Shown here: one piece after another, positions 801 to 50,826 of the stretch
Numbering within the stretch: the first letter of the stretch is position 1
How the letters are laid out: every line of letters starts with the position of its first letter
Source: Myxococcota bacterium
Lineage (GTDB): Bacteria; Myxococcota_A; UBA796
Length of the DNA stretch: 58,029 nt
Assembly: GCA_047621685.1 (NCBI GenBank)
Contig: JBLHNG010000003.1
Coordinates: forward strand, 1-58,029
Direction of reading: 5' to 3'
Translations under genes and position numbers: made by a program
The notes under the pieces: model-generated
Told to the model about the DNA's origin: nothing
Seen by the model: only the letters and a program-made list of their open reading frames with translations
The model's database searches: none

Positions 801-3800
801 ATGTTTCCTGAGACGGAGCGATTTGCCGAGCAGGCCCTCCTCGGCAGCGGAGCTCTGGGGCGGGTCTACCGGGCGGAGGACAGCACCAACGGCTTCGTGA
901 TCGCCATTCGCGTCCTCCCGCCGGCCCCGCCATGGGCAATGTACCGCCTCCAGAGTGACTTCTCTAAGCTCCAGTCCATCGAGCACGACAACCTCGTTCG
1001 CCCGATTGAGCTGGTCGACAGCGGCGATCCATGGTTCATCACGATGGCGTATATCGACGGGCCGACGCTGCCGGATTGGCTGGCGCGGTTTCCCGGCCCG
1101 GGTGCGATCCAGGAGGTCTTCGGACAGCTCACCCGGGGGCTGATGGCGCTGCACGACAGCGGGCTGCTCCACCGCAACCTCAAGCCCGACAATGTGCGCA
1201 TCACTTCGAGCGGAGTCGTCAAGGTGCTCGACGGCGGACTGGCCGGGCTGCTGTTCGATCCCCACGTCATCCCCGACGCACCGCAGACCCGCTACGAGGC
1301 CCCGGAGCTTCGCGCGGATCCGGAGCGGGTCACTGCGGCGGTGGACTGGTACAGCCTCGGCATGCTGCTGGCTGAGCAGCTCCCCACCTCCGACGGCCCC
1401 CTCGGCCTGCTGTGCGCCGCGCTCACCCACGCCGATCCAACCCTGCGTCCCGACGGGCCTGCTGTCCTCGCCGCACTCGTCGCGGCCCCGACCTGGCCAC
1501 CGCATCGCCCAGAGGGGCACCCCTTCGTCGGGCGACAGGCCCCCCTCGAGGCCCTGGAGGCCTGCTGGGAGCAGTGCCAGGACGGGCCGGTGATCGCCCT
1601 GCTGAGCGGCCGCAGCGGAGACGGGATGAGCACCCTCGCCGACCGCTTCCTCGCACAGCGCCCCGAGGGCACCACAACGCTCACAGTCCGCTGCCACACC
1701 CCGTCTCGGGTCCCCCTCGGCCTCCTCCGCCGCCTCGTTGCCGCGCTCCCGGTGACCTCCGTCGATGGCCTCAGCCCGGCGCTCGCGCAGGTGTTCCCAG
1801 TGCTGCGGGGCCGAACCGGTGACGTCACCGAGGTCGCGCTGCCACCGGATCCCCGGGCGGTGCGCTTCCAGGCTCTCGACGACCTGCGCACCTTGCTGGC
1901 CGCTGTGACGGCAGCAGCGCCGCTGGTGGTCCTCCTCGAAGACCTCCACCGCGCCGACGCAGCCTCTGCCCGGGTGCTCGCCGACCTCCTCACAGCTCCG
2001 TCGCCGCCCCGGCTGCTGCTGCTGGGAACCTGTCCGACGGAGGCGCTCTCCAGTGCGGTGTTCATCCGGGGCTGGACCGAGCTGGAGGAGCAGGCATCGG
2101 GCTGGATGCATCGGATCCCGGTCCCACCGCTGCCCCCGGAGGCGCTCCATGACAGCCTCACCCAGCAGGGCCTCACCGACCCCGAGCAGCGCCTCCGGAT
2201 CATCGCCAGCGCCGCCGGCAGCCCGCTGTTCGCCCAGCGGCTCCTCCGGATGGGCCTCGCCGACGTCAGCCGGGTGCCGCCGCTCACCCACCGCCAGGCG
2301 CTGACCCGCCACATCGCCACCCTCCCCATCCGCCAGCAGCGCATCCTGGAGGTCCTCACCGCCGCACAGCAGCCGCTGTCGGACACGATGCTGACCGGGA
2401 TCATCGGCGAGGCGATCGGTGACGCCATCGCTGCGCTGGTCGACGACGCGCTGATCACACCGCCCCCAAGCATCGCCCTGGCCCATGAGCGCATCCTCAC
2501 AGCCGTGCAGGCCCGGGCCGCGCCGACGCTCTACCACCGCAGCCTTGCTGAGGCCCTCATGGAGGAAGATCCGATCGATCGGATCCGGATCTGCTGGCAC
2601 CTGCTGGCCTCTGGCGATCCCGCCAGTGCCGTCCCCTACGCCATCGCCGCCGCCGATCAGGCCGCCGCCACGCTCCAGCTGGAGGCCGCCGGTACGCACT
2701 ACCACCTCGCCCTCACCCACCTCTCCGCCTCCGACAGCCGACGAAAGCGCGTGGTCGCTGCCGCCGCCGCAGTGATGGTCCGGCTGGGTCAGGCCCGGGA
2801 GGCCGCGCCGCTGCTGGAGGAGATCGCCGCGCTGCGCGGAGACGACGCCGACTGGCAGCGACGGGCCGCCGAGCAGTGGATCACCGCCGGAGAGCACACC
2901 CGCGGCCTCGAGATGCTCCAGTCCCTCCTGGAGCGTGCCGGAGTCCGCTGGCCGAGCGGGCGCACGGAGCAGTCTGTCCTGCTGCGCTTCGGCATGACCC
3001 GGCTCCGCCTCCAGACACTGCCCGAGGGCTGGGACACCGGCAGCCCCGAGCCCGCCGCGCTGCACCGGATGGCGCTGTGCTGGACCGCCGCCCAGGCCCT
3101 GTGGTGGGTCGCTCCCCTGCGCTCACAGTACCTCCTGATGATCGGCCTCGGACACGCGCTGAAGGCCCGAGCATCCCGCCAGACCGCCCGCTTCGGCCTG
3201 CTGCTCTACACCAACCGACGGGGTGCCTCCGAGCGCCTCGCGGCCTGTGAGGCGCTCGCCCGACGCATTGGACAGCCGGAGCTGAGCGCGATGGCGGACT
3301 GGATGGCCGCCGCCGCGCTCCACGCCGGCACCCCGCTGGAGAGCATCCCCGGCTACCAGTCCGCCATCGCGCAGTTTGAGCGAGAGTGCCCCGAGGCGGT
3401 CTGGGAGAGCCTCATGGCACGGACCGGGCTGCTCGACGCCCTGTGGTGGTCCGGTCAGCTCGACCAGCTCCGCCCCCTGTGGCAGGACAACCTCAAGCGC
3501 GCCCGCAGCCTCAAGGACCAGTCGCTGTGGTGCTCGGCGGCGCTGTGCGGTGGACGGCTGGCGCTGCTGGAAGGTCGAGTGGGTCGCGCCCGGGAGCGCG
3601 TCGCCCAGATCCTCGCCCGCACCCGCCCCCCCGTCGAGCACCTCCACGCCCGCCTCCTCGGTGTTCGCTGTGCACTCTACGCCGACGACCTCAGCACCGT
3701 CGGGGCCGAGATCGAGGCGATCTGGCACATCCTGGAGGACGACAGCCTCCTCAGCCTCCCCGCGCTGCACCTCCATGCCCTCGACCTCCGCGCCGCCACA

Positions 3801-4178
3801 CTGGCCGCCCTCCTGCGCGCCCACACCGCCGGCACCCCCGCACCCAACAGCCCCACCCCCCGCACCCTGAGTCGTGCAGAGGCCCGGATCCGCAAGATGC
3901 TGGAGCGCAGCGGGCGACCCGACATGCTCGCCCTCGCCCGCCTCCATCGGGGCAGCGTCCTGGCCGCTCAGGGCAACCGGACCGGGGCACAGACCGCGCT
4001 GAGTGAGGCGCAGCCGCTGCTGGAGTCCGCTGGCCTGCTCCTGCACGCTGCGATGTGCGCCGTTGCTGTTGGGCGGCTGTCGGATGACCCCGACGACACC
4101 CCGCTGCTCGACCTCGGTGCCCTCAACCCCGACGCCCTGCTCCGGGCGTTCGTTCCGGGTGTGGTGAGCGAGCCCTGA
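801..4178 (+). CDS. Ser/Thr-kinase-like domain fused to a STAND/AAA-type NTPase-like domain and a long helical-repeat region (predicted pseudokinase)
   Basis: Kinase subdomains at the N-terminus: GSGALGRV, HRNLKPDN, RYEAPE, DWYSLG. A P-loop-like GRSGDGMST follows, then more than 700 aa of Leu/Ala-rich helical repeats. 1125-aa ORF with strong GC3. Confidence 0.9.
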   Translation: MFPETERFAEQALLGSGALGRVYRAEDSTNGFVIAIRVLPPAPPWAMYRLQSDFSKLQSIEHDNLVRPIELVDSGDPWFITMAYIDGPTLPDWLARFPGPGAIQEVFGQLTRGLMALHDSGLLHRNLKPDNVRITSSGVVKVLDGGLAGLLFDPHVIPDAPQTRYEAPELRADPERVTAAVDWYSLGMLLAEQLPTSDGPLGLLCAALTHADPTLRPDGPAVLAALVAAPTWPPHRPEGHPFVGRQAPLEALEACWEQCQDGPVIALLSGRSGDGMSTLADRFLAQRPEGTTTLTVRCHTPSRVPLGLLRRLVAALPVTSVDGLSPALAQVFPVLRGRTGDVTEVALPPDPRAVRFQALDDLRTLLAAVTAAAPLVVLLEDLHRADAASARVLADLLTAPSPPRLLLLGTCPTEALSSAVFIRGWTELEEQASGWMHRIPVPPLPPEALHDSLTQQGLTDPEQRLRIIASAAGSPLFAQRLLRMGLADVSRVPPLTHRQALTRHIATLPIRQQRILEVLTAAQQPLSDTMLTGIIGEAIGDAIAALVDDALITPPPSIALAHERILTAVQARAAPTLYHRSLAEALMEEDPIDRIRICWHLLASGDPASAVPYAIAAADQAAATLQLEAAGTHYHLALTHLSASDSRRKRVVAAAAAVMVRLGQAREAAPLLEEIAALRGDDADWQRRAAEQWITAGEHTRGLEMLQSLLERAGVRWPSGRTEQSVLLRFGMTRLRLQTLPEGWDTGSPEPAALHRMALCWTAAQALWWVAPLRSQYLLMIGLGHALKARASRQTARFGLLLYTNRRGASERLAACEALARRIGQPELSAMADWMAAAALHAGTPLESIPGYQSAIAQFERECPEAVWESLMARTGLLDALWWSGQLDQLRPLWQDNLKRARSLKDQSLWCSAALCGGRLALLEGRVGRARERVAQILARTRPPVEHLHARLLGVRCALYADDLSTVGAEIEAIWHILEDDSLLSLPALHLHALDLRAATLAALLRAHTAGTPAPNSPTPRTLSRAEARIRKMLERSGRPDMLALARLHRGSVLAAQGNRTGAQTALSEAQPLLESAGLLLHAAMCAVAVGRLSDDPDDTPLLDLGALNPDALLRAFVPGVVSEP

Positions 4179-7226: not shown

Positions 7227-8572
7227 GGCAGCTCCACGGACACAGCACCCGGCAGGGCACCGCCGGCACCCTCCGGGATCACCGACAGGGTGGTTCGACG
7301 CTCTGGAGACAGCCAGGTCTGTGTGACCCGGACGACATCCTCAGCGGTCACATCAGCATACCGCTGCCACTCCTCGGCAAAGCAGTCCGGACGCCCATAG
7401 TGGACCATGCAGTCCGTCAGGTGCTCGGCGCGGTCTTCGGGAAGCTCCAGGGCGTCGAGGGTCGAGGCGAGCATGACGGCCTTTGTCCTGGCCATCTCTG
7501 CCTCGGTGGGCGGGTGGTCGATGACGTCTTGGAGGACCGCCTCGATCATGCGCTCCATCTTCGGGATCCGCGACTTCATCGAGGCGGTGTAGATGATGAA
7601 CTGGCTCGCCACCTCACCAGTGCTCAGCCACGCCCAGGTCTCGCTGGCGATCCGACGCTTGTAGTACATCGCGTCATCCAGCCGGGTGCCCCGACCATAC
7701 GAGAGGATGTAGCTCAGGGTCTCCAGGGCGGCGGCGTCGGGGTGCGCCTGGTTGGGGGCCGACCAGCCCATCCACAGCCCCCAGTCCTCGATGGCGTCCT
7801 CCAGCATCCCGTTGCTGCCACTCTCGGGCAGCGCGACCTCGGTGAGCCGTGGAGCCTCAGGGGCGGGCTTCTCGGGCACATCGGAGAACCACCACTCCAC
7901 CCGCGCGAGCATCTCCTGAGCGTCGAAGTTGCCGACCAGGGCGAGCACCGTGTTGTCCGGACGGTAGTGACGCTGCCAGAAGTCCTGGGTGCTCTCGACG
8001 GTGAAGCCCTCGACATCGGCGATCGTGCCGATGACCGGTACATGGTAGGGGTGCCCGACCGGCCACATCAGCCGGGAGAAGGCGTCCCAGTCCCGGCCAT
8101 GGGGATCGGCGTAGCCCTCGGCACGCTCCTGGAGCACCACATCGCGCTGGTTGGCGACGTTCTCCTCGGTGACCCCGGCGGACAGGAAGCCGAGCCGGTC
8201 ACTCTCCAGGAACAGGGCCAGCTCTGCCGCACCGGAGGGGAAGGTCATGTGGTAGGCAGTGGTGTCCTCAGAGGTCCAGGCGTTGTTGCTGCCGCCAGCC
8301 TGGGTGAGCCACTCGTCGAAGCTGGCGCCGGGCACGTTGGTGGAGCCCTCGAACATCAGGTGCTCGAACAGGTGCGCGCAGCCCCGCTCTCCGTCCAGCT
8401 CGTCCCGGGAGCCCACCCCGAACCGCAAATGCAGGGCGACGGTGTCGGTGCGACGAGACTCTTCGAGGATGACGGTGAGGCCATTGTCGAGGACGACGGT
8501 GATGGCGTCGGTGTCCAGCAGGGGCTGATCCGGCGGTGGGCCGGCGAGCGCGGTGGGGATGAGCAGCAGCAA
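7223..8572 (-). CDS. M16 family zinc metallopeptidase (HxxEH)
   Basis: HLFEHLMFEG zinc-binding inverted motif. Start placed at TTG 8572 because AGGAGG lies 7 nt upstream. The maximal ORF reaches ATG 8650 but would overlap the divergent kinase gene. Confidence 0.85.
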   Translation of the reverse strand: MLLLIPTALAGPPPDQPLLDTDAITVVLDNGLTVILEESRRTDTVALHLRFGVGSRDELDGERGCAHLFEHLMFEGSTNVPGASFDEWLTQAGGSNNAWTSEDTTAYHMTFPSGAAELALFLESDRLGFLSAGVTEENVANQRDVVLQERAEGYADPHGRDWDAFSRLMWPVGHPYHVPVIGTIADVEGFTVESTQDFWQRHYRPDNTVLALVGNFDAQEMLARVEWWFSDVPEKPAPEAPRLTEVALPESGSNGMLEDAIEDWGLWMGWSAPNQAHPDAAALETLSYILSYGRGTRLDDAMYYKRRIASETWAWLSTGEVASQFIIYTASMKSRIPKMERMIEAVLQDVIDHPPTEAEMARTKAVMLASTLDALELPEDRAEHLTDCMVHYGRPDCFAEEWQRYADVTAEDVVRVTQTWLSPERRTTLSVIPEGAGGALPGAVSVELP

Positions 8573-10109
8573 GGGGGAACCTCCTGACCGGGAGACTACA
8601 CCGGGGTCGGTATACTCGGGGCTCGTGCTGCTGAAACCCGGAACCACCATCGGCGACTACACCGTCCAGGCGTTCCTGGGCGCTGGCGGCATGGCGAGCG
8701 TCTACCGGGTGGTCCACACCTCTGGCTCGGTGCATGCCCTCAAGGTCCTCCGACAGACCGGTGATGCCGCCGTCCGTGCCGAGAAGATGGGGCGGTTCAT
8801 CGCTGAGGGAGAGATCCAGGCCCGACTGCGCCACCCCCACCTGCTGCCGGTGCTCGCGCTGATCAAGGATCCAGTGGGGCTGGTGATGGAGCTGCTGAGG
8901 GGCGAAGACCTCGGCGCACGGCTGATCCGGGAGGGCGCCCAGCCGCCGCTGCTGGCGGTTGGGTGGATCCAGCAGATCCTCTCCGCGCTTGCCCTCGTCC
9001 ACAGCCACGACATCGTCCACCGGGACCTCAAGCCGGGCAACATCTTCCTGGAGCGCCTCGCTGATGGCACCGATCAGGTCCGGGTGATGGACTTCGGTCT
9101 GGCGCGGGTGCTGGGGCTGTCGCAGACCCGCACCGGGGCGATCATCGGCTCGCTCTGCTACCTGTCCCCCGAGCAGATCACCGACAACCTCACCGTCGAT
9201 CACCGGGCGGACCTGTTCACCATCGGCGCGCTGCTGTTCGAGCTGCTCACCGGCACCCAGGCCTTCGTCGCGGAGAGCGAGTTCTCGGTCATGGAGCGCA
9301 TCCGCTCTGGCAGCCAGACCCCGGTAGCCGCGATCAACCCCGACATCCCCGACTCGCTCTGCGAGGTGGTCCGGCGCGCGCTGCGTCCCGACCCCGACGA
9401 TCGCTACCCCGATGCCGCCGCCTTCTCTGCGGCCCTCCAGACCACCATCGATGCCGGGGACGTGCCGCAGCAGGTCTCTCATCGCATCCACAACGCCCAG
9501 GAGGCCCTGCTGCGCAAGACGGTGCGGGCCCGGCTGGAGAAGTCGCTGTCAAAGCTGAGCCGCCGACGGGGTGGGATCGCGGGTCTCCCAGAGCTGCCCC
9601 CGCTCCTCCGGGTCTTCACCCTCGCGGGTCGCCTGGAGGCGATGTCCCTGCCCGCGCTCCAGGACGCCGCACAGAGCCTGCCTGACCTCATCGGCGCAGC
9701 CCGGCAGGCGATCCAGGACTGGGAGATCGAGACGGGGCTGCGAATTGATGCCTTCCAGGCGGCCCGGTATGCCCTCCGAGACGCCCAGGTCGCCAACCAG
9801 CCCGACGCCATCGCGGCTGAGGTCGGCGGCGGTCTGGGCGCGCGGTGGCGGTGGCGTCGGGTCGCTCAGGTTCGCTGGGAGGCCGAGGGGGCCGCCGCAC
9901 AGGCTCTCTCCAGGGTCCTCACCACCCTGCCCGAGCTCCCCGAGACTCACCCCCTCACTGCTCCCACACTCCGCCGCCGACAGCGCGCCGAGGATGCCCT
10001 TGTCCGCGCGCGGCATTGCTATCCCCCGCCGCCCCTGTCGATGTGGATGGCGGTGGTGCTTGGGGTGCTGCTTGGGCTGCTGGGGACGGTTGTTTGGGTG
10101 GTTTTGTGA
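8553..10109 (+). CDS. Ser/Thr protein kinase, C-terminally membrane-anchored
   Basis: Intact GAGGMASV, ALKVL, HRDLKPGN, DFGLAR and SPE motifs. Terminal TM segment MWMAVVLGVLLGLLGTVVWVVL. The start is ambiguous among GTG 8553, ATG 8559 and GTG 8625. Confidence 0.9.
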   Translation: MGMSSSKGEPPDRETTPGSVYSGLVLLKPGTTIGDYTVQAFLGAGGMASVYRVVHTSGSVHALKVLRQTGDAAVRAEKMGRFIAEGEIQARLRHPHLLPVLALIKDPVGLVMELLRGEDLGARLIREGAQPPLLAVGWIQQILSALALVHSHDIVHRDLKPGNIFLERLADGTDQVRVMDFGLARVLGLSQTRTGAIIGSLCYLSPEQITDNLTVDHRADLFTIGALLFELLTGTQAFVAESEFSVMERIRSGSQTPVAAINPDIPDSLCEVVRRALRPDPDDRYPDAAAFSAALQTTIDAGDVPQQVSHRIHNAQEALLRKTVRARLEKSLSKLSRRRGGIAGLPELPPLLRVFTLAGRLEAMSLPALQDAAQSLPDLIGAARQAIQDWEIETGLRIDAFQAARYALRDAQVANQPDAIAAEVGGGLGARWRWRRVAQVRWEAEGAAAQALSRVLTTLPELPETHPLTAPTLRRRQRAEDALVRARHCYPPPPLSMWMAVVLGVLLGLLGTVVWVVL

Positions 10110-10125: not shown

Positions 10126-10588
10126 GTGCAGCCCCCCTTGAGCGCAGCGCCACAAGCAGGTCTGAGCGAAGCGAGTGGCTGCGGTGGTGCGGAGTGGCCA
10201 GGAAAAGCATGGCGCCAACGTTGAGTGACCTCAGCTCTCCGGTGAGAGAGCACCCTTCGGGGTCGAACGCCACGACGCTGCGCAGCCAGGGGCAAGCAGT
10301 GCAGGTAGGCAACATCTAGACCTGCGACGGGAGAATCGTCAGAGTGTGGCGGTGCTCTCGATGCGGGCTCTCCCATGCTCCAGCGATGCGAGAATCGTGG
10401 GTATTGATGTTGCCTACCTGCACTGCTCGCCTCTGGCTGCGCAGCGTCGGGGCGATGGGATGACGGCGGGTGCTCGTCTCAGGTTTTAGTTGAGGCTATT
10501 CGTCGTCTCACCGGCGCTTTTTCTGGCCACTTCGCACCAACGCAGGCCATTCGCTTCGCTCAGACCGGCTCATGGCGCTGCGCTCAAG
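10126..10588. repeat. about 190-bp imperfect inverted repeat pair (arms 10126-10316 and 10406-10588) around a roughly 90-bp spacer
   Basis: By-eye alignment of the left arm (gtgcagccccccttgagcgcagcgcc...gcagtgcaggtaggcaacatc) with the reverse complement of the right arm. The outer roughly 85 nt and inner roughly 45 nt match with few mismatches. Confidence 0.8.
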
Positions 10589-22904: not shown

Positions 22905-23699
22905 ATGGCCTCTCCCCTGTCCCTCCTCGGCTTCCTCATGACCCACGCGGTGATCCTCTGGTACTTCCAGGTGATCAACAGGGAGAAGGTCCCGGTCAGC
23001 ATCGGGCCGTTCTCTGGTGCGATCCTCACCGGGATGGTGCTCTCTGCCGTCGGCTTCGCTCTGGATCCCGGCGGCTTGACCGGCGGCCTGATGGCGGTCA
23101 CCCTGTTCATGGGTGGCTTCATCCTCTGGCTGCTCACCCAGCGCAAGGTGCCCGACGGCAACCTGATCGTCTCCACCGGCCAGCCCATGCCGCTCCTCGC
23201 CGCCACCACCGACACCGGGGCAGCCTTCGACCTCGCGAGCCTCAAGGGTCGGCGTGTGATGGTCAAGTTCTTCCGCGGCAGCTGGTGACCGTACTGCTCC
23301 GCCGAGTTGCGGCGGTTTCAGGACATGGCTCCCCTGCTCGATGAGTACGGGGTCTCAGTAGTCGCCATCAGCCGGGATACCCAAGAGGACGCCGCTGCTC
23401 ACCGCGCCCGGGACGGCCTCACCTTCCCCCTGCTCTCTGACCCGGACCTGTCGGTGATTAAGCGGTTCGGGCTGCTGCACGAGGGCGTCATCCGGTTCCG
23501 GACCTTCCTCATCGGCGGGGCGCGGTTCCCGCTGGGCTGGCCGGTGGGCTTCGACCAGATGGCGATTCCCACCACCCTGCTGCTCGACGCGGACCACGTG
23601 GTGCGGTGGATCGATCAGGCGGACGACTACCGGATCCGGGGAGATGTGGAGCGGACGCGGGGGGCGCTGGTGGAGACGTTTGGGGAGCAGGCAGTTTGA
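22905..23699 (+). CDS. membrane-anchored AhpC/TSA-type redoxin, candidate selenoprotein (UGA 23286-23288 read as Sec)
   Basis: Listed ORFs 22905..23288 and 23307..23699 are in the same frame. Joined they read KFFRGSW-U-PYCSAELRRF...VVAISRD...FPLLSDPD. Three N-terminal TM segments. Confidence 0.7.
23294..23321 (+). promoter_or_regulatory. candidate bacterial SECIS hairpin
   Basis: ctg-ct-CCGCC-gaguugc-GGCGG-ttt-cag. The upper stem starts 10 nt after the UGA and the loop contains GU. Confidence 0.45.
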
Positions 23700-23735: not shown

Positions 23736-24857
23736 ATGAAGCACCTCCCCCTCCTCCTTCTCTTCGTCGGCTGCGGCGATAAAGACACCGGCTCCTCCAC
23801 CGAAGAAGCCGACGCGGACACCGACGCAGACACCGATGCAGACACGGATGCCGATACCGACGCAGACACCGATGCAGACACCGACGCAGACACCGATGCA
23901 GACACCGACGCAGACACCGACGCCGATCCAATGTGCGACGCCGCCCAGGCCATCGTCGATGCCGCCAACACCCTGACGGCATCGCTCGACGCCAAGCAGC
24001 TCGACACCATCTCCTTCGCCATGGACGACGAGGAGCGGTTCACCTGGTCCAACCTCCCGCCGATCACCACCCCCCGGGAGGGGCTGCCCTACGCCGACAT
24101 GACCGCCGATCAGCGCACGCTCGCCGAGGCCCTGCTCGCCGCCTCCATCAGCGCGGGCGGGCTGGAGGAGGTCGAGGGCATCATCCAGATCGAGGCAGAG
24201 CTGCAAGCGGGCGGCGACATGTCGGCCGATGGTGACCTCTACTACTTCGACATCTTCGACACCCCCTCCATGAAGGAGCCCTGGGGCTGGCAGCTCGACG
24301 GCCACCACCTCGCGATGAGCTTCACCGCCGTCGGCTGCATCTACACCATGACCCCCACCCTCTACGGGGTCTCCCCCAAGGCCACCTCCGACGGCTACGA
24401 GCCCCTGGGTGACGAGGTCATGCTGGCCGAGGCGCTCGCCAGCGCGATGACCGAGGCGCAGCTCAAGGGTGCCGCCCTCACCACCCCACCACAGCTCATC
24501 GCTGGCCCGAACTACCAGGGCGACCTGGAGCCCGAGGGCCTGCCCCTCTCCGAGCTGACCAGCGATCAGCTCTCCCTGCTCGACTCACTGATCGAGGCCT
24601 ACATAACCGACCAGGAGGGCGTGTTCGCCGACTGGAAGATGGAGGAGGTCCGGGCAGAGTACGATGAGACCGTCCTGGGCTGGACCGGACCGTTCGACGG
24701 CACCGGCGCCATCTACTACCGCATCCACGGTCCCGGAATCCTCATCGAGTTCGACCACGTGGACCAGACCCGCGAGCACATCCACGCCGTCTATCGGGAT
24801 CCCCGCAACGACTACGGCGAGGACCTGCTGGCCAGGCACTACCAGGAGTTCCATTGA
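23736..24857 (+). CDS. DUF3500 family lipoprotein
   Basis: Lipobox LLLFVGC, a (DADT)n linker, and DGHHL...YYRIHGPGILIEFDH...HIHAVYRDPRNDYGEDLL as in DUF3500. Confidence 0.85.
   Translation: MKHLPLLLLFVGCGDKDTGSSTEEADADTDADTDADTDADTDADTDADTDADTDADTDADTDADPMCDAAQAIVDAANTLTASLDAKQLDTISFAMDDEERFTWSNLPPITTPREGLPYADMTADQRTLAEALLAASISAGGLEEVEGIIQIEAELQAGGDMSADGDLYYFDIFDTPSMKEPWGWQLDGHHLAMSFTAVGCIYTMTPTLYGVSPKATSDGYEPLGDEVMLAEALASAMTEAQLKGAALTTPPQLIAGPNYQGDLEPEGLPLSELTSDQLSLLDSLIEAYITDQEGVFADWKMEEVRAEYDETVLGWTGPFDGTGAIYYRIHGPGILIEFDHVDQTREHIHAVYRDPRNDYGEDLLARHYQEFH
23808..23927 (+). repeat. 12-nt tandem repeat encoding (D-A-D-T)n
   Basis: gacgc(a/g)gacacc-type units repeated about 10 times inside the DUF3500 gene. 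Confidence 0.9.
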
Positions 24858-25387
24858 GCCCCCTCGCGCTCATCCTGCTGATCGGCTGCACCCGGCCCGG
24901 CTCCACCGGCACCGACCCGATCACCGAGGGCTTCGAGATCGGCGAGGAGCCGCCAGACTTCACCCTCACCAACGCCGAGGGCGACCTCGTCTCGCTGTCG
25001 GACTACCCCGACCAGCGAGTCATCGTGGTCGGCACCGCCTCCTGGTGAAGCACCTGTGTGTCCCTGGTTCAGGGACTGAATGACGAGTGGTACACCGTGG
25101 ATGCACCGGAGGATGTCGAGGTCATCGCGGTGCTCATCGAGGACAGCCAGGGCAACCCGGCAGACGCAGCAGACGTGGCGGACTTCGTGAGCTTCACCGA
25201 CGTGACCTTTCCAGTGCTCGGCGACGAAGAGGCCACCTGGATCGAGGTCTGGGGCTCCGGCGACAGCGGCAGCGGTCGGCACACGTACACGATTATTGGC
25301 ACTGATGGGACGATCGGCTGGCGCAAGGATGATGGCAGCAGTGGCTCGGTGGAGGAGATCACCGCCGGGCTGGCGATTGTGGAGTAG
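24854..25387 (+). CDS. TlpA/ResA-like thiol:disulfide oxidoreductase lipoprotein, candidate selenoprotein (UGA 25046-25048 read as Sec)
   Basis: Listed ORFs 24854..25048 and 25058..25387 are in the same frame. Joined they read PDFTLTNAEGDLVSLSDYPDQRVIVVGTASW-U-STC...VEVIAVLIED...FPVLGD. Lipobox LLIGC. The TTG start overlaps the DUF3500 stop (TTGA). Confidence 0.7.
25060..25076 (+). promoter_or_regulatory. candidate bacterial SECIS hairpin
   Basis: GTCCCTG-gtt-CAGGGAC is a perfect 7-bp stem starting 11 nt after the UGA. The apical region reads GGUUC. Confidence 0.5.
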
Positions 25388-25690: not shown

Positions 25691-26113
25691 TCAGGCCGAA
25701 GGCCGCAGCCGTGTGAGCCCAACCAGCACCCCAATCCCCACAACCCCGCCAATGTGCGGGGCGGCGGCGCTCACCGGATGGCCGGCGAGCAAGACGAGCA
25801 CCAGATCCGCCAGGGGCAGCAGCAGAATCAGCGGCAGCAGCCGACGCTGGGCGACGGGATGGGGGCGCAGCGCGAGCAGGGCGAGGCCGAGGATGAGGTC
25901 ACGGGTGCCGGTGGCCCGCACCCAGGTCGGTGCTTCAGAAGGCACCCCGTAAGTCTGAGAGGACCACTCCGGCGCAACCAGCGCCCCCGCCCCCAGACCG
26001 AGCAGGCCGATGGCCAGGGCGAGGGTGCCGAAGGAGATGAGCGTGTTGGTGGTGGAAGAGGTCACCAGAGGATCATATCGGCATTGTCGACGCAGTCGAG
26101 GATCAGGCAACAC
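25691..26113 (-). CDS. small hydrophobic membrane protein (DUF4267-like)
   Basis: Four hydrophobic segments. A shorter start at GTG 26065 is equally possible. Confidence 0.55.
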   Translation of the reverse strand: MLPDPRLRRQCRYDPLVTSSTTNTLISFGTLALAIGLLGLGAGALVAPEWSSQTYGVPSEAPTWVRATGTRDLILGLALLALRPHPVAQRRLLPLILLLPLADLVLVLLAGHPVSAAAPHIGGVVGIGVLVGLTRLRPSA

Positions 26114-26221
26114 CGCACCTGGGCGAGACCTTCCGATCAGGCCGAAAAATCAGCGACTCAATCGAGCGCTGTGTACACTGAATTCAAGTCAACATCCGGT
26201 AATTTCAATCAGGAACAGTCC

Positions 26222-28715
<2,494 letters not shown>

Positions 28716-28738
<23 letters not shown>

Positions 28739-38596: not shown

Positions 38597-40888
38597 TCAA
38601 GGCACCATCAGCCGAAACATCCCCATGTCCTCCGCCAGCACCGCCGCCCGCCAGGAACCAACCGGGTCCGCAGGGTCCGCATACAGACGCTCCATCAGCG
38701 CACGGCTGTCAGCATCATCGACCGGAATCGTCGCGGCAATGACCGCCTCCCCGCCAGCCAGCAGAAACGCCTGAGCCAGCCCGAGACTCTCCACCGCAAC
38801 CGGGGGAGAGGCTGCACCATCGCAGGTCGAGAGGACAACGGTCTGCGGTGCGCGAGACAGGGTCAGCAAATCACCGACGGTCAGCCGACCGCCGCCGTTG
38901 ACCAGGAACGCGCTGTCGGTCACGATGTTCTCGCGCTCACCATGCCCGGCATAGTGCAGCATCGCGGTGTCTTCCAGCAGCAACAGCAGCGACCTGCGGG
39001 TGACATCGCTGCCCGAGAGCGGGCGCACGACCCTGCCCGCCCGGGTCAGCGCGCCAGTAACCAACGCGGCCTCCGCCCGTGCCCCGGGCAGGTTGAGCCG
39101 GGGATCACTGACGACTGCCGCAGTGTTCTCGATCGGGCGCGGGGGTCGTGGCGGCAGATCGAGGCTATAGCGGACAAGATGATGGGCCAGCAGCGGGCGC
39201 CCCTGGAGCGGGAGCATGTGCAGGTCGATGCGCCTCAGCGTGCCATGTGGCAGCAGCGTGATCACCTCGGCGGATGCGATCTGCTCGGCAAACGGCACCA
39301 GCAGCGCCTCGGCGAGGATCTCTGGAGGAGCGTTGAGGTCGACGGAGGGAATCCGGGCAGTGGTCAGTCCCTCCGAGCTGGCCGCGATCCCCACCCAGTC
39401 CGACCCCAGTGAGAACCACGTCAGCAGCAGCTCGCCGGGATCCGGAGAACGAAGCGAGGCCTCGGGGAGGATGTGCGGGGTGCCAGCATCGAGGGCCTGG
39501 CGGGCAAGCTCCTCCTGCCGACGACGCAGGATCGTCAGGACACGGTTCTGCTCACTGGTGGCCGACCAGTCTCCGGGGGTCACCGCCTCCCGGGCGACGC
39601 GGTAGTCGCGTGCCGCCGACAGCCACCGCTCCCGATCTTCCACGGAGAACCGCTCGGTGAGCAGCCCCTGGAGGAGGAGGAGCCGAGCGGTCCGGATCAC
39701 CACGAGAGCGTCTTCAGGCCGATCGTCCGCCAGCAGCAGGGTCACCAGCAGCCGGTCGGCGGGCAGTCCCCGACTCAAGAAACGATCCCGGCCGTTGTGG
39801 AGTGGGACCAGGAGGCTGTGCTCCAGCAGGACCGCGCGGGCCTCCTTGAGCACCGCGATGGCCTCCGCATGCTGCCCCAGCGACGCCAGGATCTCTCCCT
39901 GGGCCACCAGCGCCTGCCAGCGATGACGCGGAGAGGCCGCACCCGTCGATGCGATCACCCCTTCCATCGCCGAGAGCGCCTCGCCGAGCTGGCCGCGGTG
40001 CTGGTGAAGGCGCCCACGCAGATACGCCGCCCACAGCGTCTCGTCGTGGCGTTCTGGTGCGGCGCTGTTGAGGGCCGACTCCAGGGCATCCAGGTCGCCG
40101 AACTCAAGCGCATCGCGGGCTTGAGTGAGGTGTGTGCGAGAGATCGAGGGACAGTCGATCACTCCCGACAGCTCGATCTCCACCCCGCTCAGCTCAGCGG
40201 CCTCCACCAGCACCCAGCCCCGAGACTCCTCTGCCGCACAGCCATCCTCCGACCGGAGGATCCGGCGCGCCTCCCGGTGGCGGCCCACCGCCGCGAGCTG
40301 CTCCGCCAGCCGAAGCGACACCGGAGTGTTTACGCTGTAAATCATCCGGCCTGAAAGCTGGTTCGCATGACGATAGTGCCTCATCGCGGCCCGATGGTCC
40401 CCCCGGTAGCCCGCCAGATCCCCACGACGGAGCTGGAGCTGCCAGGCAGAGGTCAGATCGCCCGGGAGCCGATCGGTGATGCGCTGGAGGTGTGCTTCCG
40501 CAGTCCCCACATCCCCGTCCGCGATCGCGGCATCGACCTCGGAGAGCCCGGCGAGCACCTGCTGCCGTGTGTCGGTCGTCCCGGTCGTCTTCCCCAGCAG
40601 AAGCCGGCCGATCCGACCGTTGTTGTCCTCGATGACCAGTGTCTCTGCGCCAGACGGCACCGCGACATCCAGCAGCACCCCGCCCCCCTCGATCTGCGAC
40701 ATCGCGCCGACCGGCTGGCCGTCCACCATCACCGACAGCGGCGGCAGGGCCTCGACCCACAGGCGCACCGGCGTGCTCCCCGGCAGACACCGCGGCCCGG
40801 TCGTCACCGCCACACAGCCGTCGAACATCAACGGCAGCGTCGGTGGGTCGGGGGTCTGCATGCAGCTGAGCAGGACGAAGAAGATCAT
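38597..40888 (-). CDS. TPR-like repeat + CHAT (caspase-like) protease domain lipoprotein
   Basis: ATG 40888 overlaps the upstream stop (ATGA). Lipobox MIFFVLLSC. The C-terminal dyad context is LHYAGHGE and VVLSTCDGA. Confidence 0.85.
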   Translation of the reverse strand: MIFFVLLSCMQTPDPPTLPLMFDGCVAVTTGPRCLPGSTPVRLWVEALPPLSVMVDGQPVGAMSQIEGGGVLLDVAVPSGAETLVIEDNNGRIGRLLLGKTTGTTDTRQQVLAGLSEVDAAIADGDVGTAEAHLQRITDRLPGDLTSAWQLQLRRGDLAGYRGDHRAAMRHYRHANQLSGRMIYSVNTPVSLRLAEQLAAVGRHREARRILRSEDGCAAEESRGWVLVEAAELSGVEIELSGVIDCPSISRTHLTQARDALEFGDLDALESALNSAAPERHDETLWAAYLRGRLHQHRGQLGEALSAMEGVIASTGAASPRHRWQALVAQGEILASLGQHAEAIAVLKEARAVLLEHSLLVPLHNGRDRFLSRGLPADRLLVTLLLADDRPEDALVVIRTARLLLLQGLLTERFSVEDRERWLSAARDYRVAREAVTPGDWSATSEQNRVLTILRRRQEELARQALDAGTPHILPEASLRSPDPGELLLTWFSLGSDWVGIAASSEGLTTARIPSVDLNAPPEILAEALLVPFAEQIASAEVITLLPHGTLRRIDLHMLPLQGRPLLAHHLVRYSLDLPPRPPRPIENTAAVVSDPRLNLPGARAEAALVTGALTRAGRVVRPLSGSDVTRRSLLLLLEDTAMLHYAGHGERENIVTDSAFLVNGGGRLTVGDLLTLSRAPQTVVLSTCDGAASPPVAVESLGLAQAFLLAGGEAVIAATIPVDDADSRALMERLYADPADPVGSWRAAVLAEDMGMFRLMVP

Positions 40889-41646
40889 CGCTCGGAGATG
40901 ATGACCTCGCGCTTCCAGAAGGTCCACTGCGGCGGGGGCTCCTCTGCTGCTGCGTCCAGGGTGTCTTCGGAGAAGGTCGCGTGCCACCCCCGGATCGGGA
41001 TCGCGCGCTCCAGGGTGCTGACGGGCCCCGCCGGTCCGACTCCGATCAGCAGGGTGTGGGGCCCAGAGGCCAACGCCAGGTCCTCACCGACGATGCCCCC
41101 CAGTCGGTGTGCGCCGTTGCTGGAGGAAACGTCCAGGTCCATCGGCGCCCACCCATCCGGGCCACGGGTGAACACCACGACCTGTGTGGAGCTGTCGGGC
41201 TGGGTGCGGGGTCGGAGGATGAGGCGCATCCGGGAGCCGATCGAGTAGGCCATGACCTCGTCTGGATCGGAGTCGCTCAGGGAGCGCTCGGGCAGATCAC
41301 CGGGGCGGGCGATCAGCCGATAGACCGGCGGCTCTGCGGACGGCGTGCTGGCGACATACCCGAGCCGCACCACCATCACTGCCGCCATCACTGCCACCAG
41401 ACGCGGCAGCCAGGGCCACCACCGACGGCGCGGTTTCTGCGGCACCCGAGGGGGTGGAATCACGGCCAGCTCTGCACGAATCCGACGTGCAAAGCCAGAT
41501 CCGAGGGGAGCCAGGGCGATCGCAGCAGCCGGGTCCGACTCCGCGAGCGCCGCTGCCTCCTCCGCGCTCAGCTCCCCGGCAGCCAGCTGATCCCAGCGGG
41601 CGTCGAGGTGCTCCATGTCGATCTCATCATCCAGGTCTCGTTTCAT
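40885..41646 (-). CDS. single-pass membrane anti-sigma-factor-like protein
   Basis: Lies 3 nt downstream of the sigma gene. It has a short acidic cytoplasmic N-terminus, the TM segment WWPWLPRLVAVMAAVMVV, and a roughly 150-aa extracytoplasmic domain. Confidence 0.6.
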   Translation of the reverse strand: MKRDLDDEIDMEHLDARWDQLAAGELSAEEAAALAESDPAAAIALAPLGSGFARRIRAELAVIPPPRVPQKPRRRWWPWLPRLVAVMAAVMVVRLGYVASTPSAEPPVYRLIARPGDLPERSLSDSDPDEVMAYSIGSRMRLILRPRTQPDSSTQVVVFTRGPDGWAPMDLDVSSSNGAHRLGGIVGEDLALASGPHTLLIGVGPAGPVSTLERAIPIRGWHATFSEDTLDAAAEEPPPQWTFWKREVIISER

Positions 41647-47399: not shown

Positions 47400-49823
47400 T
47401 CAGTAGACGATTGGAGCAGCCCAGATCCGGGCTGGCAGCCCCTCACGGCGGAGCTGTTGGCAGACCAGAGCGGTGACCCGGGCTGGATCGTTAAACGGCC
47501 AGTGAGTCATCATGCACTGCACAAAGCGCCCCATCTCGCGGTCCTGGACCGGCCATCGGGTGGCGATCACTGCGGATGCACCCGCGCTGAGGAAAGCGCC
47601 GGCCATCGACCGCTCGACACCTCGGTGCAGCGCTGAGGCACCGGTCGCGCAGCCCGACAGCAGCACGATGGGGTTGCCGGAGAGCGGAAGGTTAGAGATC
47701 TCAGGTGGCCCGATGAGGCCGTCGGCCATCACCAGCAAGGGCATGCCACGCTCTCGGCGGGAGTGAACGCCGATGTGCAGCAGGCCGACCGGGGGAAGCT
47801 CCAGGAGCGCCCGGTGGGTCACCTCGCTTCGGCGGAGGAACACATCTGCCGAGGCAACCTCCGCATCTGCCATCGGGAGGTCTCCGTGGGCGTCCGCCAG
47901 ACTGGCGACCGCAGCCGGCAGCACCATGGGCTGTGCGCCTCGGCGACGACGGGGACCCGCGAGATCAATGAACTGCGGGGGACGGGCATCGCCGACCTGT
48001 GCAGCGATGTACGGCATCGGAGCGTTTGCCAGCAGGCTATTGCTGCCCAACAGGATCTGTCCTGTCGGGATCCCATCGGGGAACAGGATCTCAGCCAGCC
48101 GGATGGCAACCCTGGGGGTTCCGCCTGTGAGGGCTTCCTGCTGGCTGGTGTGGACCAGGCGCAGGAACTCATCCCGACTCATGCGGATGTTTCGGACCGA
48201 TGCTCCGGGCTGACCGCTGAGCACCAGCAGTCCCTGGGGCACCGCGAGGATCCCCATCAGCGAGATCCGATCGTCTGCGGCATCTGCGGTGTGCAGGAAG
48301 TACAGGCGCATCAGGTGACGGGCAGCAGCAGCATGAGCCTCGATGGCCAGATTCAGCAGCGCAATCAGGGTGTGCAGCGTGCTGGCATGGACCCGACCGT
48401 CATCGTGTTGGTGCAGCTCGTCCTCAACGGCGGTGATGACCTGCGCCCAGTCGGTCACGCGACCAGAGCGCTGCGTGACCAGGATCCGGAGCAGGATCCA
48501 GCTCAGCCCTCGACTGCTGAGGGTCTTCAGCTGCTCGACCTCTTCGTTGAGCGCCTGCAGCCGGACCTGAGCCTCAGAGAGCTGTCCGCTGCCGACAAAG
48601 GCCTCGATGAGGTAGCCGCGGGCCTCCATCGCGCTGTACGGAGACAGCTTGTCGATCCAGGGAGCATTCAGGGACCGGAGGGCGACATCGTAGAGACCGA
48701 GCGCGACGTTGAGGCGCAGGCCGATCTGTCCCAGGCGCGCGACCTCTTCAGGGGCGGCAATCTGTGCCATCGCCAGCCACCGGGCCGCGGCCTCCAGCTC
48801 CCAATTGTTCAGTGCTGCCTGGGCCTGCTCCCGGCAGACCCAGGCGGCGTTTCGGTTGTCCAGGGCCACCCGACGGACGAGCGCCTGAAGCACCGACTCC
48901 GCAGCGGGCTGAAACTGGAGACAGTTCAAGGCAATCGCCAAACCCAGCGCCGCCTGAATCTCACCGGCAGTGTCCTTGACTTCTATCCCCCGCTCCAGCG
49001 CCTCCCGATAGAGACGAGACGCTTCAAAAAAGCTGCCCCGCTGGCCCAATTTTCCCGCTCTATAGATCAGCGCGATGGTCTCTTCATCCGCCGGCTTGAG
49101 CCGCTCCGCCGTATACAACACCCGGACATCGGAGGGCTCAAAGCCGGTGTCGAGGTTTAGCTCTGCGGCGTGCAGGCAGTGCTCGGCGCCCTGGAGGAGG
49201 TCTGTGAGGCTCGTGGAGTCGTGGGAGCGGTAGACGTCAGAGAGCCACAACCCCCAGAGGATGGGATCGACGGCCTGGGAGGAGGACAGCGCGACGATGC
49301 GGCGCGTGCCCTCAGGCAGGTGGGCCAGCTCCAGAGACACACCAGGGCGCTCCCGGCTGAGCTGGTGGACCAGGATCGGCGGCCCACCCTGCATCACCGC
49401 GTAGAGCAGCAGATGACAGGCCAGGGGATCGTGAGCCAGGGCCCCGCGCTCGGTCCGGTGAAGCTCCAGCGCGCCCTGAGAGCGATAGTTTCGGTAGAGG
49501 CTCTGAGAGGTCATCTCCGGAAACGGTGCCAACCCCTGGGTCTGTGCCAGCAGGAGGGCGGGAGCCGGAGGAGCGGTGCGAGCTGCCGTCCGGGCCTGGA
49601 GCGCCTTGAGGGAAGGCGGCTTCGGCATGGAAGCAACCACGGTCGACTCGCGGACCATCGCACCGAGCTGCCCAAGCTGCTTCTCTAGTTGGAGCTGGCC
49701 CTGACACTCACTGCAGCCCTGAGCGTGCTGACGTGCCGGTGCGGGCCAGACTCGGAATCCGGTCCACTCCAGGGTTCCCTGGAGAATTTGCTCTTCAATC
49801 AACTTGTGGGTCAACTCAGTCAT
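47400..49823 (-). CDS. zinc anti-sigma (ZAS, HxxxCxxC) N-terminal domain fused to TPR-like repeats and a CHAT protease domain
   Basis: ATG 49823 overlaps the sigma stop (ATGA). H33-AQG-C37-SE-C40. C-terminal LHIGVHS and IVLLSGCATG dyad context. No signal peptide or TM segment. Confidence 0.85.
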   Translation of the reverse strand: MTELTHKLIEEQILQGTLEWTGFRVWPAPARQHAQGCSECQGQLQLEKQLGQLGAMVRESTVVASMPKPPSLKALQARTAARTAPPAPALLLAQTQGLAPFPEMTSQSLYRNYRSQGALELHRTERGALAHDPLACHLLLYAVMQGGPPILVHQLSRERPGVSLELAHLPEGTRRIVALSSSQAVDPILWGLWLSDVYRSHDSTSLTDLLQGAEHCLHAAELNLDTGFEPSDVRVLYTAERLKPADEETIALIYRAGKLGQRGSFFEASRLYREALERGIEVKDTAGEIQAALGLAIALNCLQFQPAAESVLQALVRRVALDNRNAAWVCREQAQAALNNWELEAAARWLAMAQIAAPEEVARLGQIGLRLNVALGLYDVALRSLNAPWIDKLSPYSAMEARGYLIEAFVGSGQLSEAQVRLQALNEEVEQLKTLSSRGLSWILLRILVTQRSGRVTDWAQVITAVEDELHQHDDGRVHASTLHTLIALLNLAIEAHAAAARHLMRLYFLHTADAADDRISLMGILAVPQGLLVLSGQPGASVRNIRMSRDEFLRLVHTSQQEALTGGTPRVAIRLAEILFPDGIPTGQILLGSNSLLANAPMPYIAAQVGDARPPQFIDLAGPRRRRGAQPMVLPAAVASLADAHGDLPMADAEVASADVFLRRSEVTHRALLELPPVGLLHIGVHSRRERGMPLLVMADGLIGPPEISNLPLSGNPIVLLSGCATGASALHRGVERSMAGAFLSAGASAVIATRWPVQDREMGRFVQCMMTHWPFNDPARVTALVCQQLRREGLPARIWAAPIVY

Positions 49824-50398
49824 GGCTGTTGTTCCTCAAGCGCAGCTCGGAGCAGCACTCGGATTCGATGAAGTCGGCTTCGCACAGCCAATGGACTCAG
49901 CGGGGGCTCCAGCTGGGCTGCAATCTCCGCAGGCTTCAGCTGCTGCTCGACACTCATCCAAAAAATCATGGGATCAGGCGGCTCCAGGAAGCGAACCACG
50001 TCGAGGATGCTGCGAGCGGTCTCGTCGCGCTGGACGGGGTCGGGCATCTCATAGGAGGTGGTAAACCGGGCGAGATAGCGCGCCTGACGTTCCGCATGGC
50101 GCTGTGTGTTCCGACGGACCCGCATCGCCTCGTAGCGGGCGAAGGTCGCAAGCCAGCCGCCCAGACTGCGCCCATCAAACCGCTGCCAGTTCTCCAGCAT
50201 CAGGGCGAAGACATTCTGGAGCTGCTCCTCGGATTCCTCCTGAGAGAACCCCTTTCGCAGAAAGATCGCCATCAGCTCTGGCCCATGAACCTCCCAGGCA
50301 AGCGGAACCACCGGCCCCACATCTCCGCTCGCAACAGCTTCATCGAGCAGACGTCTCAGCTCATCCGGTGACCGATACATGGGAGAACTCTGACTCAT
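49820..50398 (-). CDS. ECF-type RNA polymerase sigma factor (divergent)
   Basis: ATG 50398 overlaps the receiver-gene stop (ATGA). Region-2-like LQNVFALMLENWQRFDGRSLGGWLATFARY and region-4-like KPAEIAAQLEPPLSPLAVRSRLHRIRVLL. Confidence 0.7.
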   Translation of the reverse strand: MSQSSPMYRSPDELRRLLDEAVASGDVGPVVPLAWEVHGPELMAIFLRKGFSQEESEEQLQNVFALMLENWQRFDGRSLGGWLATFARYEAMRVRRNTQRHAERQARYLARFTTSYEMPDPVQRDETARSILDVVRFLEPPDPMIFWMSVEQQLKPAEIAAQLEPPLSPLAVRSRLHRIRVLLRAALEEQQP

Positions 50399-50826
50399 TC
50401 GGAGTGTGCAGACTCCGCGCTGATCAGATTTCGCAGGTGGGAGAACGAGAATGGCTTGCACAGGATCGGTCGGCCGAGGGTCTTGAGGTGTGCCTCGGTG
50501 TCCCAGGAGCATCCGCCGGTCATGAACACCGTCCGAGACTGCTGCTCTGGGGACAGGCGGGCGTAGAACGTCGGGCCATCCATCACCGGCATGACGACAT
50601 CAGAGACGATCATGTGTGGAGTGCCATGCACTGCGATGTCGGCGAGGGCATCGACAGCGGATGCGAACAGGCTGACAGAGTAGTCCTCAAGCAGCTCCCC
50701 GAGCAGCATCCGAATCACCGGGTCATCATCGACAACCAGGACTCGAAGGGACGCCTGGGGCATCTGACAGTGATGACTTGATGATGGCTGTGGAGACACC
50801 TGCTCCCTCCGGTTTAAGGCGTTCAT
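50395..50826 (-). CDS. stand-alone response-regulator receiver domain protein
   Basis: RVLVVDDDPVIRMLL...MIVSDVVMPVMDG...VFMTGG...CKPF. ATG 50826 overlaps the upstream stop (ATGA). The ATG at 50763 is an alternative start. Confidence 0.8.
   Translation of the reverse strand: MNALNRREQVSPQPSSSHHCQMPQASLRVLVVDDDPVIRMLLGELLEDYSVSLFASAVDALADIAVHGTPHMIVSDVVMPVMDGPTFYARLSPEQQSRTVFMTGGCSWDTEAHLKTLGRPILCKPFSFSHLRNLISAESAHSE

Follow-up and report, generated by a model that had tools for sequence, protein, structure and literature searches.

The window considered here is a stretch of 58,029 nucleotides from a Myxococcota bacterium (contig JBLHNG010000003.1 of GenBank assembly GCA_047621685.1, positions 1 to 58,029 of the forward strand). 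Between positions 24854 and 25387 it contains two consecutive open reading frames (ORFs), the first of which ends in TGA. We read these, with high confidence, as a single gene encoding a thioredoxin-fold redox lipoprotein in which selenocysteine (Sec) occupies the place of an active-site cysteine, specified by the UGA codon together with a hairpin just downstream. This had been proposed in an initial inspection of the letters of the DNA (below, the sequence-only reading). The features of the locus, all on the + strand, are the following:

24854..25387, +: proposed complete selenoprotein gene (177 codons plus TAG; TTG start; UGA codon 65 read as Sec)
24843..24847, +: Shine-Dalgarno-like AGGAG, read from the sequence, 6 nt upstream of the TTG start
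24854..24889, +: putative short signal peptide with lipobox L-I-G-C (Cys12 codon at 24887-24889)
25046..25048, +: in-frame UGA, the proposed Sec codon (residue 65, first position of U-S-T-C), invariant in 10 independent sequences
25055..25057, +: codon of the second (resolving) Cys of UxxC, lying between the UGA and the GTG taken as a start by gene callers
25060..25076, +: candidate bacterial selenocysteine insertion sequence (SECIS) hairpin, stem 25060-25066 paired with 25070-25076, loop GUU at 25067-25069
25277..25282, +: codons of R142-H143, at the position of the TlpA/ResA cis-Pro loop (from hhalign and the family alignment)

Translation places the two ORFs (24854..25048 and 25058..25387) in a common frame, with an offset of 204 nt. 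On read-through the junction is RVIVVGTASW-[TGA]-STCVSLVQGL. Both this junction and the flanking motifs listed in the sequence-only reading (PDFTLTNAEGDLVSLSDY, VEVIAVLIED and FPVLGD) are found in the translation as described. For the Pfam search the 177-residue product was used with Cys in place of the stop. It matches AhpC-TSA (56.5 bits) and Redoxin (47.3 bits), both above the gathering score and both spanning the TGA. The TTG start overlaps the TGA stop codon of an upstream DUF3500 gene (as TTGA). A promoter and terminator scan gave no decisive signal.

Close relatives appear in the protein search only as C-terminal fragments of 109 residues (69-73% identity), which indicates that other assemblies have been split at the same place. 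The corresponding DNA has the same frame and the same TGA in loci L001-L007 (marine metagenome loci, TARA among them), in L011-L013 and in the more divergent L061-L065. L013 is contig JAQXDW010000015.1 ('MAG: Myxococcota bacterium isolate cluster4_bin.77', a metagenome-assembled genome), recovered by a genome scan using the alignment with X at the Sec position. Ten independent sequences, from marine metagenomes and this one Myxococcota MAG and with 46-73% amino-acid identity to the window protein, retain the TGA together with the second Cys and the hairpin. Pairwise ratios of nonsynonymous to synonymous substitution (dN/dS) are approximately 0.2-0.6 on the 5' side of the TGA and 0.1-0.7 on its 3' side, indicating purifying selection on both halves. 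The reading frame across the TGA is single, continuous and selected.

These data bear directly on whether the gene could be a pseudogene, in which a former CxxC gene acquired the TGA by random nonsense mutation or shows it through faulty sequencing or assembly. Gene callers do split the gene into two ORFs, and no Sec machinery is seen in the window, as such an origin would allow. The same TGA nevertheless occurs in 10 independently assembled sequences, selection acts on both halves, and the downstream hairpin is conserved with compensatory changes (see below). Moreover, the orthologue contigs differ at 20-50% of synonymous sites, so that a single misassembled template is unlikely. We consider the probability of a pseudogene to be practically negligible. 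The sequence-only reading had judged a chance nonsense mutation unlikely, and the recurrence of TGA plus hairpin in every orthologue whose DNA was read bears this out. It had also suggested looking for alternation between TGA and TGC in related genomes. All close orthologues carry TGA; the alternation is seen across the wider family.

This wider family was collected by an exhaustive search with the C-terminal fragment, which gave 54 clusters at 50% identity. About two thirds of these are fragments of 80-116 residues, as expected from a gene split at a TGA, many of which start just past the Sec position (for example, MSCRSLVEGL, MSCRALVQGL or MGCQTLVQGL). Among the divergent fragments with DNA read, TGA is present in 4/4. 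Approximately 17 of the 54 clusters are full-length lipoproteins of 160-243 residues carrying W-C-x-x-C, and in 16 full-length relatives the first Cys of this motif aligns with the UGA. Many of these Cys-form members have an additional Cys pair (C-x8-C) just upstream of the PDFTL motif, a pair that the window protein does not have.

A further possibility is that the locus yields two products, with the UGA terminating a lipopeptide of 64 residues and translation restarting at the GTG at 25058 to give a protein of 109 residues. The only Shine-Dalgarno-like site upstream of this GTG is GGTGA, which is made of the Trp and UGA codons themselves; it lies 9 nt upstream of the GTG, a workable spacing, and complements the 16S rRNA 3' end. 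Some termination at the UGA is also expected, bacterial Sec insertion being inefficient (PMC8659212). However, the codons between the TGA and the GTG read S-T-C, N-S-C, N-A-C, S-A-C or N-T-C, with the Cys encoded by TGT or TGC. The Cys is therefore fixed as protein while its codon and the two x residues vary, which argues that this stretch is translated and the Cys selected. In addition, the GTG is not kept in divergent members (where it is CGG, AGG or CAG), and the full-length Cys forms are single chains. The split would also cut the thioredoxin fold between strand beta-1 and helix alpha-1 and remove the CxxC, an arrangement for which we know of no function. Independent expression of two products is, in our view, extremely improbable, and the evidence favours one selenoprotein read through the UGA.

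The hairpin (GTCCCTG, GTT, CAGGGAC) is located where the sequence-only reading had put it: a perfect 7-bp stem that begins 11 nt past the TGA. Its calculated energy is -10.0 kcal/mol and its loop lies 18 nt from the UGA. The consensus for bacterial SECIS elements (bSECIS) has a loop of 3-9 nt, a stem of 4-16 bp, a G within loop positions 1-2, a UGA-to-loop distance of 16-37 nt and a minimum free energy of -7.5 kcal/mol or lower (PMC13188914). The window hairpin agrees with this consensus on 4/4 counts (loop of 3 nt, GUU; stem of 7 bp; 18 nt; -10.0 kcal/mol). Only 19 of the 1596 TGA triplets in the window (1.2%) are followed by a fully Watson-Crick-paired hairpin with bSECIS geometry and a stem of 7 bp or more. 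Origin from a dispersed repeat was considered and rejected, since the 17-mer forming the hairpin occurs once in the window. The fold z-score of the 71-nt region around it is only -1.45, which shows that the signal is the local hairpin rather than a large structure.

Among the orthologues with DNA read, all that keep the TGA have the hairpin as well. The close orthologues differ only in the loop, where GTT becomes GTC. Five lineages show no variation at any of the five degenerate stem codons, compared with 44% identity for codons of invariant amino acids elsewhere in the gene (p ~0.016); the five include GGA, a rare choice for Gly (10.6% of its codons in the window). The more divergent members, each represented by a C-terminal fragment whose identity to the window protein is given, have the following hairpins:

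L062 and L063, 61% identical: hairpin identical
L061, 46%: GGUCCCU-GGUCG-AGGGACU; the top pair is lost and a base pair gained
L064, 41%: GGCCCUG-GUU-CAGGGCC; U:A becomes G:C, with Ser to Ala and synonymous GGA to GGC
L065, 36%: GACCCUG-GUU-CAGGGUC; U:A becomes A:U, with Ser to Thr and synonymous GGA to GGT

In an alignment of 10 sequences, 98.6% of cells are paired, and this falls to 59% if the partner is shifted by one column. One stem pair is UA in 8 sequences, AU in 1 and GC in 1. L064 and L065 thus provide two independent compensatory changes at one and the same pair. With the close orthologues alone RNAalifold finds no covariation; this emerges only when the divergent members are added. 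The hairpin is conserved and covarying in the TGA forms. The loss of the hairpin in Cys forms is based on the DNA of one relative, L066 (W-C-T-R-C-R-S-L-V-E-G-L). This encodes the same peptide as L061 at this position, using TCG and GGG, which introduce two mismatches so that no hairpin is formed. The remaining Cys forms have unrelated peptides at the hairpin position.

The N-terminus reads M-S-P-L-A-L-I-L-L-I-G-C, and the lipobox Cys is invariant in 21/21 aligned family members, in agreement with the lipoprotein assignment of the sequence-only reading. By sequence, the nearest solved structures are the pneumococcal lipoproteins Etrx1 and Etrx2, ResA and StoA, and the Sec aligns with their first active-site Cys. 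An AlphaFold model of P0166, a Cys-form member of the family and not the window protein itself, has a thioredoxin fold (predicted local distance difference test score, pLDDT, 87.9) with the CxxC at 78-81 and a helix at 79-94. Its best matches are DsbE and ResA, with target-normalised TM-scores (TMt) of 0.78-0.87, and thiol peroxidases are close behind. As modelled, the fold class is TlpA/ResA/DsbE-like, with the CxxC at the start of helix alpha-1.

This assignment should not be taken further than the fold. None of the NCBIfam models reaches its cut-off: ResA scores 40.3 bits against 170 and TlpA 18.9 against 230. NF041054 ('ResA-like WAxxUGC motif-containing') scores 22 bits against 300, the motif here being T-A-S-W-U-S-T-C. 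In view of the low ResA score, 'TlpA-like' describes a fold class and not a proven orthologue. When the family is aligned by hhalign with a ResA-like Cys protein, the L-P-N-S-Y of the latter falls on Q/R-H-S-Y. Hence, of the TlpA/ResA layout initially proposed, the UGA at the first Cys of a CxxC in a fold of this type stands, but the cis-Pro is absent and the score is far under the NCBIfam ResA cut-off.

A second in-frame UGA is found 1760 nt upstream, in another AhpC/TSA gene of the window (the first candidate; the gene discussed so far is the second). The sequence-only reading had noted these two codons, 1.8 kb apart at the same catalytic position, and this is indeed their arrangement. The context in the first candidate is F-F-R-G-S-W-[UGA]-P-Y-C, followed 10 nt after the TGA by a 6-bp hairpin (CCGCCG-AGUUG-CGGCGG, 23299-23315). 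A scan for in-frame TGA codons, using strict coding cut-offs on both sides, returned only the first candidate and two ordinary gene junctions. The second candidate fell under these cut-offs, and the scan gave no further candidate.

Clearly, TGA has its ordinary function in this genome segment. It ends 25/42 listed window ORFs with high G+C at third codon positions (GC3) and is the commonest ordinary stop; an alternative code with UGA as a sense codon was rejected on this stop-codon usage. The same observation bears on the more general proposal that the UGA is read as a standard residue (Trp, Cys or Gly) without selenium, whether through code reassignment or through near-cognate decoding stimulated by the hairpin. 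Bacterial codes that reassign UGA exist, and sequence analysis cannot tell Sec from another inserted residue. On the other hand, UGA is a normal stop here, the only two in-frame coding TGAs found are both at the first Cys of a CxxC, the classic Sec position, and the hairpin fits the consensus for SelB-dependent SECIS elements. Read-through with a standard residue is therefore very improbable. Indirect evidence for Sec decoding in the organism is provided by the two UGA-plus-hairpin CxxC genes, by the covarying SECIS-type element and by the precedent of Anaeromyxobacter, a Sec user among the Myxococcota with 11 selenoproteins (PMC1794560).

A number of observations weigh against a SECIS-directed selenoprotein of the TlpA/ResA type. 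Pfam scans of approximately 40 window ORFs detected no SelA, SelB or SelD, and the orthologous contigs contain no selA, selB or selD either. ARAGORN found no tRNA, and hence no tRNA-Sec (selC), in the 58-kb window or in five orthologous contigs. Rfam, both at the gathering score and at E values up to 10, gave no match of the hairpin to SECIS or any other family; this carries no information, curated models being unable to capture elements as variable as the bacterial SECIS. The stem is mostly invariant, its covariation concerns a single pair, and 6/500 shuffles reach the observed score. The Escherichia coli fdhF element resembles the present one in its location inside the coding sequence, in an upper stem-loop that begins 11 nt after the UGA (PMC8659212) and in a loop with G-U. 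The likeness to fdhF initially claimed therefore holds for the spacing, but the hairpin described here differs in its perfect 7-bp stem, its loop of only 3 nt, the absence of a bulged U and the absence of sequence similarity. At the protein level, the signal peptide is unusually short (11-13 residues) and the family is without the cis-Pro, carrying instead a whole-family signature, (Q/R)-H-(S/T)-Y-T, as judged from the alignment. With the cis-Pro lost, the chemistry may differ from that of the TlpA/ResA enzymes. Peroxiredoxins carry an Arg near the cis-Pro-equivalent position and, given the Arg or Gln found here, a peroxidase-like chemistry may be envisaged from the sequence.

The following mechanism is proposed. 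A ribosome reaching the UGA at codon 65 would encounter the hairpin 11 nt downstream, which would act as a bacterial SECIS and recruit SelB-GTP-Sec-tRNA(Sec), so that selenocysteine would be inserted and termination avoided. The product would be exported and lipid-anchored via Cys12. Its predicted redox centre, Sec65-x-x-Cys68, would lie at the start of helix alpha-1 of a TlpA/ResA/DsbE-like thioredoxin domain, and its most likely role would be that of an extracytoplasmic selenol/thiol-disulfide oxidoreductase. Sec would be the attacking nucleophile, Cys68 would resolve the mixed selenenylsulfide, and a DsbD/CcdA-type electron donor in the membrane would re-reduce the enzyme. In this scheme SelB decoding, lipid anchoring outside the cytoplasm, the redox direction and the substrate are inferred.

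How does this gene compare with known systems? Selenoproteins with UxxC, both peroxiredoxin (Prx)-like and TlpA-like (cd02966), were described in 2005-2006 from deltaproteobacterial genomes and the Sargasso Sea, and are included in a 2026 review. That the present gene is a further case of this long-known kind is well supported. The features in common are Sec at the first position of a CxxC-derived motif, an AhpC/TSA-Redoxin fold, Cys-containing homologues, a small SECIS with a G in the apical loop past the UGA, and a marine, deltaproteobacterial or Myxococcota-type setting. In contrast to that class, the clade described here is putatively lipoprotein-anchored and without a cis-Pro. The best sequence and structure matches are with ResA (Bacillus), TlpA, CcmG/DsbE and Etrx1/Etrx2 (Streptococcus pneumoniae). 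With these it has in common the layout PDFTL...G..V.LSD..G..V.V.(F)WASWCxxC, an N-terminal beta-hairpin and a putative membrane or lipid anchor, and it differs from them in having Sec for the first Cys and Q/R-H in place of the cis-Pro loop. Pfam scans of the window revealed no cytochrome-c maturation, Sco, Msr or DsbD/CcdA gene nearby.

The clade includes, so far, one Myxococcota MAG and unassigned marine metagenome contigs, and falls outside curated models; most of its clusters appear to be Sec forms. It could be imagined that the gene founds a separate group of thioredoxin-fold lipoproteins, for the most part with Sec, in which the near-universal cis-Pro has been replaced by (Q/R)-His and which, together with the DUF3500 lipoprotein, forms a new periplasmic selenoenzyme system (for example, a peroxidase or metal-site reductase) rather than a classical TlpA-type disulfide reductase. 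We consider this unlikely.

The gene order in the vicinity is: an 887-residue membrane protein, the first candidate, a DUF3500 lipoprotein, the second selenoprotein gene and a convergent DUF4267 gene. The coordinates of the three annotated neighbours are:

22905..23699, +: first candidate, a membrane-anchored AhpC/TSA protein with W-U-P-Y-C (TGA at 23286-23288)
23736..24857, +: DUF3500 lipoprotein gene (Pfam DUF3500, E 9.5e-75)
25691..26113, -: convergent DUF4267 gene (Pfam), the downstream neighbour in L001 and L002 too

The block DUF3500, selenoprotein, DUF4267 is kept in L006, L011, L012 and L013; in these four, DUF3500 precedes the selenoprotein gene as in the window, and the DUF3500 protein is 77-84% identical. 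In the L001/L002 lineage the upstream gene is one for endonuclease I instead. The DUF3500 gene is probably co-transcribed and translationally coupled with the selenoprotein gene, and synteny suggests its product as the leading candidate for a client or partner. This lipoprotein has a long acidic repeat linker, (D-A-D-T)n, past its lipobox and a His-rich C-terminus.

The first candidate has many full-length Cys homologues of up to 48% identity (in Shimia, Alteromonas, Sandaracinaceae and others), and no conserved partner was found in the gene neighbourhoods of these homologues. Its cis-Pro motif, I-P-T-T, is retained. L012 is otherwise syntenic and has the gene for the 887-residue protein but no copy of the first candidate, so that the latter was either inserted in the window lineage or lost in that of L012. 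A 195-residue protein, P0100 (L057), was considered as a fragment of an orthologue of the first candidate and rejected, its N-terminus being unrelated. Its C-terminal half is 66% identical to the first candidate, starting past the CxxC, and may reflect an assembly chimera or domain shuffling. Two loci from Actinomycetota MAGs (L027 and L034, from P01_E01_bin.9 and P01_F01_bin.18) have, at about position 10127, an in-frame TGA at the same catalytic position, in the context F-F-R-S-A-V-W-U-P-P-C followed by a hairpin, GCAGCU-GGUCG-AGCUGC. Both probably encode Prx-like selenoproteins that have gone unannotated in this phylum.

The window as a whole has a G+C content of 61-73% (mean ~67%) and encodes Ser/Thr kinases, CHAT/TPR proteins and a MopE/FG-GAP protein. 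The latter (25754-28738) has 994 residues, in which six putative metal-binding repeats of the Cys-rich MopE type precede FG-GAP repeats. Its ORF shares the strand of the selenoprotein gene and lies approximately 370 nt further downstream, beyond the convergent DUF4267 gene, whose region it overlaps; a MopE protein also occurs near the family member in L061. Further along, at 38597-41083, 47400-49823 and 49820-50512, are two large CHAT-domain (caspase-like) proteins, one with TPR, beside a sigma-70 region-2 protein. Together with two Ser/Thr kinases (801-4178 and 8553-10109), these are typical of Myxococcota signalling content. The G+C content, the encoded proteins and the presence of the orthologue and its neighbours in a Myxococcota MAG all agree with a marine member of the Myxococcota.

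The principal consequence concerns annotation. Standard gene callers break this gene at the TGA and do the same in all relatives with DNA read, leaving two ORFs without meaning in each case. Public databases consequently mis-annotate an entire selenoprotein family, one that appears to be marine and linked to the Myxococcota. The existing picture of Sec decoding is unchanged and no new principle is involved. The locus does provide a small test case, combining a natural SECIS that shows compensatory changes, a matched Cys form lacking it and, 1.8 kb away, a further selenoprotein gene. It may be of use in improving Sec-aware annotation and in asking what leads some lineages to fix Sec in redox proteins outside the cytoplasm.

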